Shown in pieces: positions 47,763 through 48,078 of a stretch of 64,000 nt of DNA. The notes beneath the pieces are model-generated. The model saw only the letters and a list, made by a program, of their open reading frames with translations. It was not told the origin of the DNA and searched no databases. Origin of the DNA: a virus. Location: the IMG/VR virus record IMGVR_UViG_3300045988_094645; one strand, 5' to 3'. Within the stretch, counting starts at the first letter, position 1, and each line of letters opens with the position of its first letter. A program made the position numbers and the translations under genes.

Positions 47763-48078
47763 TGGTGGAGCCGGCGGGAGTCGAACCCGCGTCCGAAACA
47801 CCTACATAATCAAAGTTTACTTACACGATAGTTAAATTTTATCCATTAAGTGGGATGGGCTTTAACAACCTCACTCCGTTAAGCGTACTGGTTTATACCT
47901 CCACCACTTTGTTTAAGAGAGTAAACAAAGAAACTCAAGGGTTAAGCGGCGAGCTTAGCTCAAGCCGCAAGATAATTCTCGAAATAATCGTTGTCAGTTA
48001 ATTTTGTTTGGCTCTTTAGGCGATACCATACCCGTGAACTTTAATTTCTCAATGCCCCGTCGAAACCATTACGGCCCC
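47763..48078 (-). ncRNA. ssrA: tmRNA (ssrA)
   Basis: 5' GGGGCCGUAAUGGUUUCGACGGGG. 3' GUAGGUGUUUCGGACGCGGGUUCGACUCCCGCCGGCUCCACCA, nearly identical to the E. coli tmRNA 3' end. Internal tag frame AAC GAT TAT TTC GAG AAT TAT CTT GCG GCT TGA gives (A)NDYFENYLAA. Confidence 0.8.

Follow-up and report, generated by a model that had tools for sequence, protein, structure and literature searches.

A complete tmRNA gene in the tRNA array of a TAG-recoded gut phage

Genes for transfer-messenger RNA (tmRNA) have been described both in bacteria, as in the case of E. coli SsrA, and in several groups of phages. Here, we describe a tmRNA (ssrA) gene of 316 nucleotides (nt) on the minus strand of a 64,000-nt stretch of viral DNA from the IMG/VR record IMGVR_UViG_3300045988_094645, the whole of which was analyzed and is referred to below as the window. 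The gene is a real tmRNA gene, of a kind already known from other phages. We consider it very likely that it is a functional, one-piece tmRNA gene belonging to a gut phage of roughly 100–150 kb that reads TAG as a sense codon. An initial annotation of the window had called phage-encoded tmRNA rare, a statement that has to be tempered, since 402 of 18,146 phage genomes (~2.3%) carry tmRNA genes (PMC9004378).

The window gene resembles E. coli SsrA, whose tag is (A)ANDENYALAA, in the ends of its tRNA-like domain, the G3·U70 pair, the encoded CCA, helix 2 and the putative pseudoknot that precedes the tag. The location of the stop codon in helix 5, the -LAA end of the tag and the tag length (11 encoded residues, compared to 10 in E. 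coli) are also alike. It differs in being phage-borne and located within an array of transfer RNA (tRNA) genes, in its length of 316 nt, and in its resume codon, which is GAC (Asp) rather than GCA (Ala). Furthermore, the tag (DNDYFENY before the common end) is distinct, the pseudoknot region that follows the tag is compacted, and no smpB gene was found adjacent to the tmRNA or elsewhere in the window.

Similar arrays have been described in mycobacteriophages and mycobacteria (PMC5966550), where a single tmRNA gene likewise sits in a dense array of ~30 phage tRNA genes. A large structured RNA is located in the same array in both cases, one of ~430 nt that is often present in the mycobacteriophage units (PMC5966550) and a ROOL RNA in the window phage. 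However, the hosts there are Actinobacteria, while here they are probably Clostridia, and TAG recoding and a tRNA with the anticodon CUA are found here. There is no close similarity in sequence to the mycobacteriophage tmRNA, and a blastn search with the window gene returned no mycobacteriophage match. Huge phages (Al-Shayeb et al. 2020, PMC7162821) also carry a rescue RNA alongside expanded sets of translation genes. These phages exceed 200 kb and some encode SmpB (PMC7162821), whereas the contigs related to the window are ~93–149 kb long, and SmpB was not found in the window or in phAss-1, a related phage that, like the window phage, is a TAG-recoded gut phage. Finally, the marine phage Melnitz (PMC9004378) has a complete phage tmRNA with no evidence of integration, and the roles discussed for it, upkeep of the hijacked translation machinery and protein tagging, are the same ideas that are considered here (PMC9004378). 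The Melnitz tmRNA is circularly permuted and made of two pieces, and occurs together with a glutamine riboswitch, whereas the window gene is one-piece and there was no riboswitch match in Rfam.

Identification of the gene and its relatives

The initial annotation had proposed a complete ssrA gene inside a tRNA island and had pointed to ARAGORN and to the Infernal model of the tmRNA family (RF00023) as suitable detectors. Run on the whole window, ARAGORN called 31 genes, all on the minus strand. One of these was a tmRNA at exactly 47763–48078, with the tag-coding part at gene positions 84–119 and the tag DNDYFENYLAA*. The Rfam covariance model RF00023 covered the identical coordinates on the minus strand, untruncated over the full model (positions 1–374), with a score of 120 bits (E = 2.5e-46) against a gathering score of 47. 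The proposal is thus upheld by two independent detectors, and by the conservation of the gene among related phages described below. The two features are:

47763–48078, minus strand: complete one-piece tmRNA (ssrA), 316 nt, with encoded 3' CCA (ARAGORN and Rfam RF00023)
35238–54453, minus strand: tRNA island, 30 tRNA genes on one strand (ARAGORN)

Window coordinates are obtained by subtracting the gene position from 48079. The gene ends that had been quoted, 5' GGGGCCGUAAUGGUUUCGACGGGG and 3' ...GUAGGUGUUUCGGACGCGGGUUCGACUCCCGCCGGCUCCACCA, were found in the sequence, and the latter is indeed close to enterobacterial ssrA, the final 45–46 nt being 91% identical to fragments in prophage records (blastn). 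The tag frame does end in UGA as annotated, but the peptide had been given as (A)NDYFENYLAA, omitting the leading Asp; the correct form is (A)DNDYFENYLAA. Every feature of the tmRNA family that could be checked at the level of the sequence was found, pseudoknot details apart. A single open reading frame (ORF) of at least 30 residues overlaps the gene on the plus strand (48 residues, 47855–48001), and a 39-residue ORF on the minus strand (48041–48160) overlaps its 5' end. Both coincide with an RNA gene for which support is strong, in keeping with the status of artefact that the plus-strand ORFs had been given.

Exact-pattern scans revealed the 315–316-nt type of gene at nine loci, in independent human-gut assemblies from different studies. 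These loci comprise six distinct sequences: that of the window, which is the same in loci L020 and L024; that common to L003 and L018; and those of L011, L021, L023 and L026. In all of them the gene lies in a tRNA array of common order (...Arg(tct), Phe, tmRNA, Arg(acg), Ser, Pro, Val, Gln, Gln, Leu...), and the gene order of the island is syntenic in L003, L011 and others. The contigs that carry this type of gene are 104.6, 143.1 and 149.0 kb long, within the overall range of the related contigs given above.

A 439-nt homologue was found with Rfam in phAss-1 (OQ749652.1, ~92139–92577; L001:5633–6071; 77.9 bits) and in seven related contigs. ARAGORN misses this type, and Rfam alone detects those genes. 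The phAss-1 tmRNA is not annotated in OQ749652.1, and tmRNA is never mentioned in the corresponding paper (PMC10607447). It has in common with the window gene the GAC resume codon, the CGGGUA...GCCUNAA signature of the first pseudoknot (PK1), the helix-2 strand AACUAUCGUGU and the tRNA-like domain. It is 123 nt longer, has an unusually long deduced tag of 24 residues (DNSNVIVMVHPALISAMMEVRQAA or DIDHTVIMVHPALISAMMEVRQAA) with a UAA stop, and is placed ~10 kb outside the main tRNA array, beside homologues of the window ORFs at 26666–27529. The window phage and phAss-1 have ~25 proteins in common, with 27–74% identity, including the enzymes of nicotinamide adenine dinucleotide (NAD) salvage. Since the positions of the tmRNA nevertheless differ, the gene has been kept through genome rearrangement. 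The kinship of the two phages is shown at the protein level; when 5.7 kb of coding sequence was compared with phage records by blastn, only trivial matches to Listeria phages were obtained.

When 185,579 species genomes were scanned for the exact 35-nt 3' end of the gene, seven matches were obtained. One of these was the 149-kb contig L011 (CALWOP010000177.1, 148,971 bp), which was deposited under an 'uncultured Oscillospiraceae' metagenome-assembled genome (MAG). Because the same phage tRNA array is present in this contig, the match represents phage DNA and not a host ssrA locus; over the 8 kb compared, which include the tRNA/tmRNA array, the contig aligns to the window at 71–98% identity. 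L011 is probably a phage genome that was binned with, or is resident in, the Oscillospiraceae MAG, which provides a weak hint of the host. What the other six matches (Chitiniphilus, Jeongeupia and a Polyangiaceae MAG) share with the window gene is confined to the conserved 3' end of its tRNA-like domain. No bacterial chromosome with a close or near-identical copy was found in the scans of these species genomes and of metagenomes, and a looser signature applied to metagenomes returned phage-like loci only.

Structure of the RNA and preservation of the tag frame

The elements of the RNA are as follows, with gene positions in brackets:

48072–48078, minus strand: 5' strand of the acceptor stem, GGGGCCG (1–7), with the partner CGGCUCC (306–312) at 47767–47773 (sequence reading)
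48033–48059, minus strand: 5' strand of helix 2 (20–46), with the partner (252–285) at 47794–47827 (pairing count)
48009–48033, minus strand: PK1-like pseudoknot before the tag, hairpin 51–57/65–70 with a 7-nt loop (folding and invariance)
47960–47995, minus strand: tag frame GAC AAC GAU UAU UUC GAG AAU UAU CUU GCG GCU UGA (ARAGORN and Rfam)
47946–47968, minus strand: helix 5 (111–133), with the UGA stop (117–119) inside it (pairing count)
47898–47930, minus strand: pseudoknot A, PK2-like, stem 149–156/165–172 and UCUCU (159–163) with GGAGG (177–181) (pairing count)
47841–47876, minus strand: proposed pseudoknot B, GAGUG (203–207) with CACUU (227–231) and AUCC (223–226) with GGAU (235–238) (pairing count)
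47763–47790, minus strand: T arm (289–305: GCGGG, loop UUCGACU, CCCGC), 3' strand of the acceptor stem and terminal ACCA (sequence reading)

Pairing was counted in the six variants of the 316-nt type, which are 96% identical and from which the proposed structure was itself derived. The count excludes the PK1 hairpin, which was examined by direct reading and refolding. The counted helices were 98–100% paired, compared to 42–50% when the partner strand was slid by 1–3 columns. Substitutions within these helices comprised one compensatory change (G153–C168 to A–U), nine one-sided changes that preserved pairing and one break, a C·A in helix 5 of L023. We take this pattern as support for the structure, not as proof of it.

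In the tRNA-like domain, all seven pairs of the acceptor stem, including the G3·U310 wobble, are intact in all six distinct sequences, and the five pairs of the T arm (289–293/301–305) are invariant. The G·U at the third acceptor pair is also preserved in the 439-nt type (GGGCCCG/CGGGUCC). This pair, G3·U70, is an alanine identity determinant recognized by alanyl-tRNA synthetase (AlaRS) (PMC3985003). Helix 2 consists of three segments (20–28/277–285, 33–42/262–271 and 43–46/252–255), whose 23 pairs are 100% paired in the six sequences, with four one-sided, pairing-preserving changes.

The loop of the PK1 hairpin is GCCUAAA in the window gene and has the conserved form GCCUNAA. This loop and the upstream CGGGUA are invariant, and the hairpin is predicted in most variants. 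The second pairing of PK1 would be formed by GGGU (46–49) with GCCU of the loop (58–61), a complementarity that is invariant and beyond the reach of covariation. The hairpin stem, on the other hand, covaries by eye: the pair G53–C68 of the window gene is C–G in L003 and L011, and C–G or A–U among relatives. Position 55 forms C–G in one and U–A in the other of L003 and L011, and the 439-nt type has a separate stem of 8 bp.

The frame resumes at GAC (gene position 84), a codon that the Rfam alignment matches to the consensus resume codon, GCA, with high posterior probability. Counting from this codon, there is an A at −4 and a U at −5, which we take to correspond to A86 and U85 of E. coli. In the tmRNA family, the choice of this codon is made by SmpB, which reads positions −6 to +1 (PMC3985003). 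The frame encodes the 11 residues DNDYFENYLAA, so that the full tag is (A)DNDYFENYLAA. The helix that contains its stop codon, helix 5, has nine pairs (111–115/129–133 and 118–121/125–128) and is 98% paired in the six sequences, with three changes to G·U in addition to the C·A mismatch in L023.

Downstream of the tag, two H-type pseudoknots, A and B, are proposed. Pseudoknot A is 100% paired. Its stem contains the compensatory change noted above, which occurs in L011, and its second stem changes once from C–G to U·G. The 439-nt relatives have a pseudoknot-A hairpin of a different sequence (CUUGCAU/AUGCAAG) with an identical GGAGG partner. Pseudoknot B is likewise 100% paired in the six sequences, the sole informative change being from G–C to G·U, and is put forward as a structural proposal, not as an established element.

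The tag frame is open and ends in -AA followed by a stop in every variant. The tags of the 316-nt type are DNDYFENYLAA, DNAYFENHLAA, DNDYFENYFAA and DNDYFENHLAA, with a UGA stop in all six variants, while the two tags of the 439-nt type end in RQAA and a UAA stop. In all, the stop was UGA or UAA in 13 of 13 distinct tmRNA sequences. Three substitutions affect the tag in the 316-nt type, and all of them are non-synonymous. Of the 21 positions that vary in the 439-nt type, 14 are clustered within 28 nt, from position −7 to codon 7. These changes are not independent events; they represent two sharply different alleles over the first seven codons of the tag in an otherwise near-invariant RNA.

TAG recoding, the tRNA island and neighboring genes

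TAG recoding was examined in the window, and it is real: this phage reads TAG as sense. The ORF at 12234–13685 contains 12 in-frame TAGs and, when TAG is translated as Gln, matches Phage_lysozyme2 (1.1e-31) and Amidase_2 (9.2e-12). The TAG codons run through these well-matched Pfam domains, and further ORFs contain 10–11 TAGs. No in-frame TAG occurs in genes of replication and metabolism, those for gyrase A and B, DNA ligase, RNA ligase and nicotinamide phosphoribosyltransferase (NAMPT). Recoding of TAG has been documented for phAss-1 and its close relatives (PMC10607447). A tRNA that reads UAG is encoded in the same island:

36130–36204, minus strand: suppressor tRNA, anticodon CUA (ARAGORN; Rfam tRNA, 61.6 bits)

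The acceptor stem of this tRNA is topped by a U1·U72 mismatch, and its discriminator is G73. A simple comparison with the other tRNAs of the phage leaves three candidates for its amino acid, Trp, Ser and Gln. The lysin encoded at 12234–13685 also matches SLH, though weakly and below the threshold (E = 0.001). Besides the lysin, the most TAG-rich ORFs are at 4115–5068, 16721–17485 and 55578–56612 (all on the minus strand) and resemble selfish endonucleases. They comprise a GIY-YIG protein with 11 TAGs and two paralogues, with 5 and 10 TAGs, that have LTGQRFG...CKCDCGN zinc-ribbon-like repeats and a DUF2726-like C-terminus.

The tmRNA is flanked by 18 tRNA genes upstream and 12 downstream, all on the minus strand. 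The upstream neighbor, tRNA-Phe (48185–48259), ends 106 nt from the tmRNA, and the nearest downstream tRNA gene is tRNA-Arg(acg) (46877–46953). The tRNA set found by ARAGORN covers every amino acid but Tyr. An additional tRNA of 119 nt at 44474–44592 (minus strand; Rfam, 50.9 bits), not reported by ARAGORN, has normal acceptor, D and T parts and an insertion of ~45 nt, and is conserved in L003, L011, L021, L024 and L026. Given the gap at Tyr, the gene may encode a tRNA that contains an intron or is unusual in some other way. A full-length ROOL RNA (44859–45454, minus strand; RF03087, 350 bits) separates tRNA-Gln(ttg) from tRNA-Gln(ctg). L024 has this RNA too, whereas L003 and L011 lack it and have 3–60 nt between the two Gln tRNAs, so that close relatives differ here by an insertion or a deletion.

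Directly downstream of the tmRNA is an ORF of 150 residues (47033–47485, minus strand) with no Pfam match at E ≤ 0.01 and a 33%-identical homologue in phAss-1. Its start, MEIERKWIL, resembles the EXEXK motif found in CYTH (triphosphate tunnel) enzymes. This ORF, which was considered as a candidate SmpB, is not SmpB. At the edge of the island are two adjoining genes on the minus strand, one for an 811-residue protein (30773–33208) with the Major Vault Protein domains MVP_shoulder (1.1e-17), Vault_3 (2.7e-08) and Vault repeat, and the other for a 506-residue DUF2828/DUF7788 protein (33588–35108). An RNA ligase (PF09414; 25094–26368), a calcineurin-like phosphoesterase (27767–28636) and a PIN and PhoH protein (14551–15807), all on the minus strand, may form, alongside the array, a set for the repair and processing of RNA or tRNA. 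The NAD-salvage cluster (20287–24854, minus strand), which is common with phAss-1, comprises NAMPT (65% identity), ribose-phosphate pyrophosphokinase and nicotinamidase, with functions transferred from the phAss-1 annotation.

Possible roles of the tmRNA during infection

Several results weigh against the conclusion that this is a functional tmRNA gene. A shuffle control of the pairing count was not significant (86/500), because the six variants are 96% identical and the power to detect covariation is low. The Rfam posterior probability is low across the pseudoknot region after the tag, where the local segments are 23 and 15 nt long, compared to 32 and 55 nt in the model. At 316 nt the RNA is also short, E. 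coli tmRNA being 363 nt long. Two downstream pseudoknot-like elements can be proposed, compared to three in E. coli, so that the total number of pseudoknots is probably three here and four in E. coli. The tmRNA family varies in the region after the tag, and the last three pseudoknots in the E. coli RNA are not needed in vitro (PMC3985003). No dedicated promoter or terminator stands out around the tmRNA, where all consensus matches are weak and two fall within the gene itself. Finally, no SmpB was detected in the 64-kb window or the complete phAss-1 genome, with nothing below E = 1. The searches consisted of tblastn on the window and the whole phAss-1 genome and phmmer (--max) on the window ORFs translated with TAG as Gln; the queries were the SmpB sequences of E. 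coli and B. subtilis, which are 45% identical to each other, as expected. Since no phage SmpB was found, the RNA presumably uses the SmpB, and the AlaRS, of the host. The near-canonical tRNA-like domain is compatible with use of host SmpB.

We infer that the gene is expressed, that its product is charged and works with host SmpB, and that this benefits the phage. The RNA would probably be co-transcribed with the surrounding tRNA array and then processed like a tRNA. It would be charged with alanine by host AlaRS through the G3·U70 pair and bound by host SmpB, and would then enter ribosomes stalled at the 3' ends of mRNAs, which would switch onto the frame of the tmRNA itself. The nascent chain would be transferred, extended by A-DNDYFENYLAA and terminated at the UGA. 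In this way, ribosomes would be released for phage protein synthesis, while truncated products would be marked for host proteolysis via the -LAA end. For the phage, the benefit would be a greater capacity for ribosome rescue during infection, a time at which decay of host mRNA and readthrough of TAG should each add to the load of non-stop ribosomes.

We considered the possibility that the gene is instead a non-functional passenger, such as a captured host ssrA, the remnant of an attachment site or an assembly chimera with host DNA. The 3' ends of ssrA genes are classic prophage integration sites, and nearly all blastn matches of the window gene are indeed 3' fragments of ssrA in phage records. 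However, the window gene is full length, and was not assigned to the class of attachment-site fragments, the enterobacterial members of which cover only 12–15% of the query. No integrase was found among the 18 ORFs scanned with Pfam, a set that included the large ORFs of the window. Phage tRNA genes lie on both flanks, the synteny holds in independent assemblies from different studies, the helices and the tag frame are preserved through sequence change, and no close copy turned up in the bacterial genomes scanned. A passenger origin is thus largely refuted, and we regard it as highly improbable. Replacement of host functions is a different matter. Like the near-complete tRNA set, the tmRNA would in that case stand in for translation RNAs of the host that infection depletes or shuts off or that host nucleases cleave, leaving the phage self-sufficient in translation. 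The location of the gene in an array of 30 tRNAs that covers all amino acids but Tyr fits this idea, and the RNA ligase, the metallophosphoesterase and the PhoH/PIN protein in the window suggest RNA repair. To our knowledge, no host nuclease that targets tmRNA has been described, which counts against such a role. The tRNA-like domain of the phage RNA is near canonical in sequence, and not obviously one that evades a nuclease. That phage tRNAs evade host defenses directed at tRNAs is a published idea (PMC10264068). Overall, we find a replacement or anti-defense role of the tmRNA rather improbable.

The initial annotation had proposed that the tmRNA rescues ribosomes stalled at unsuppressed TAG codons. 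This role is plausible, but appears mechanistically loose as worded, because tmRNA–SmpB acts chiefly on ribosomes at the 3' end of an mRNA. A more specific form of the explanation favored here is that the tmRNA has been kept precisely because the phage suppresses TAG: the CUA tRNA would cause TAG-ended mRNAs to be read to their 3' ends, or UAG would be poorly decoded, and the tmRNA would clear the resulting complexes and tag their products. Suppressor tRNAs do cause readthrough of natural stops, leading to non-stop complexes and a greater need for SsrA (Ueda et al. 2002, as summarized in PMC3985003), and tmRNA tags at, and resolves, unassigned UAG when RF1 is absent (PMC6207430). In the present case, TAG recoding is real and the CUA tRNA lies in the same array. 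The 316-nt lineage, the phAss-1 genome and most contigs of the 439-nt type also hold large tRNA arrays. PMBT24, a non-recoded phage placed near the group in PMC10607447, has neither tRNA genes nor a tmRNA, although it is a weak control with only two ORFs in common with the window. The correlation comes from essentially one clade, and many non-recoding phages carry tmRNA (PMC9004378, PMC5966550). Since tmRNA is not mentioned in a survey of stop-codon recoding (bioRxiv 10.1101/2021.08.26.457843), nor in a paper on zeta crAss-like phages that carry suppressor tRNAs (PMC12386605), it is not a general component of recoding. The tag stops, which are UGA or UAA and never UAG in the 13 distinct tmRNA sequences, fit specialization of this kind. 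The lack of UAG carries little weight, however, because UAA and UGA are the ordinary stop codons of tmRNA. Overall, a functional link to TAG suppression is plausible, but we consider it unlikely that the tmRNA is kept specifically for recoding. It is also rather unlikely, in our estimate, that the tmRNA is adaptive within the TAG recoding of the gut phage clade to the point where its fast-changing, lineage-specific tags reflect adaptation to, or evasion of, recognition by host adaptors and proteases. In that case, switching on the suppressor would lead to readthrough of TAG-ended host and early mRNAs and to a flood of non-stop ribosomes, which the rescue RNA of the phage, with its frame ending in UGA or UAA, would resolve so that ribosomes stay available, possibly sending the tagged products to a fate chosen by the phage.

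Taken by itself, the gene is a well-formed tmRNA of an ordinary kind, and what it adds to the systems described above is modest: a new tmRNA lineage with distinctive tags, its presence in a clade of TAG-recoded gut phages, and the missed annotation in phAss-1. The latter exposes an annotation gap, as the phAss-1 tmRNA was left unannotated and lies beyond the reach of ARAGORN. The tag peptide ...ADNDYFENYLAA provides a handle with which to search gut metaproteomes for phage-driven trans-translation. If the link to recoding were true, the tmRNA would be a new component in the model of how phages switch the genetic code during infection. In the window, a mid-sized gut phage combines a near-complete tRNA set with an amber suppressor and a ribosome-rescue RNA of its own. 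The theme of translational autonomy, familiar from huge phages and mycobacteriophages, now reaches mid-sized TAG-recoded phages, probably of Clostridia.

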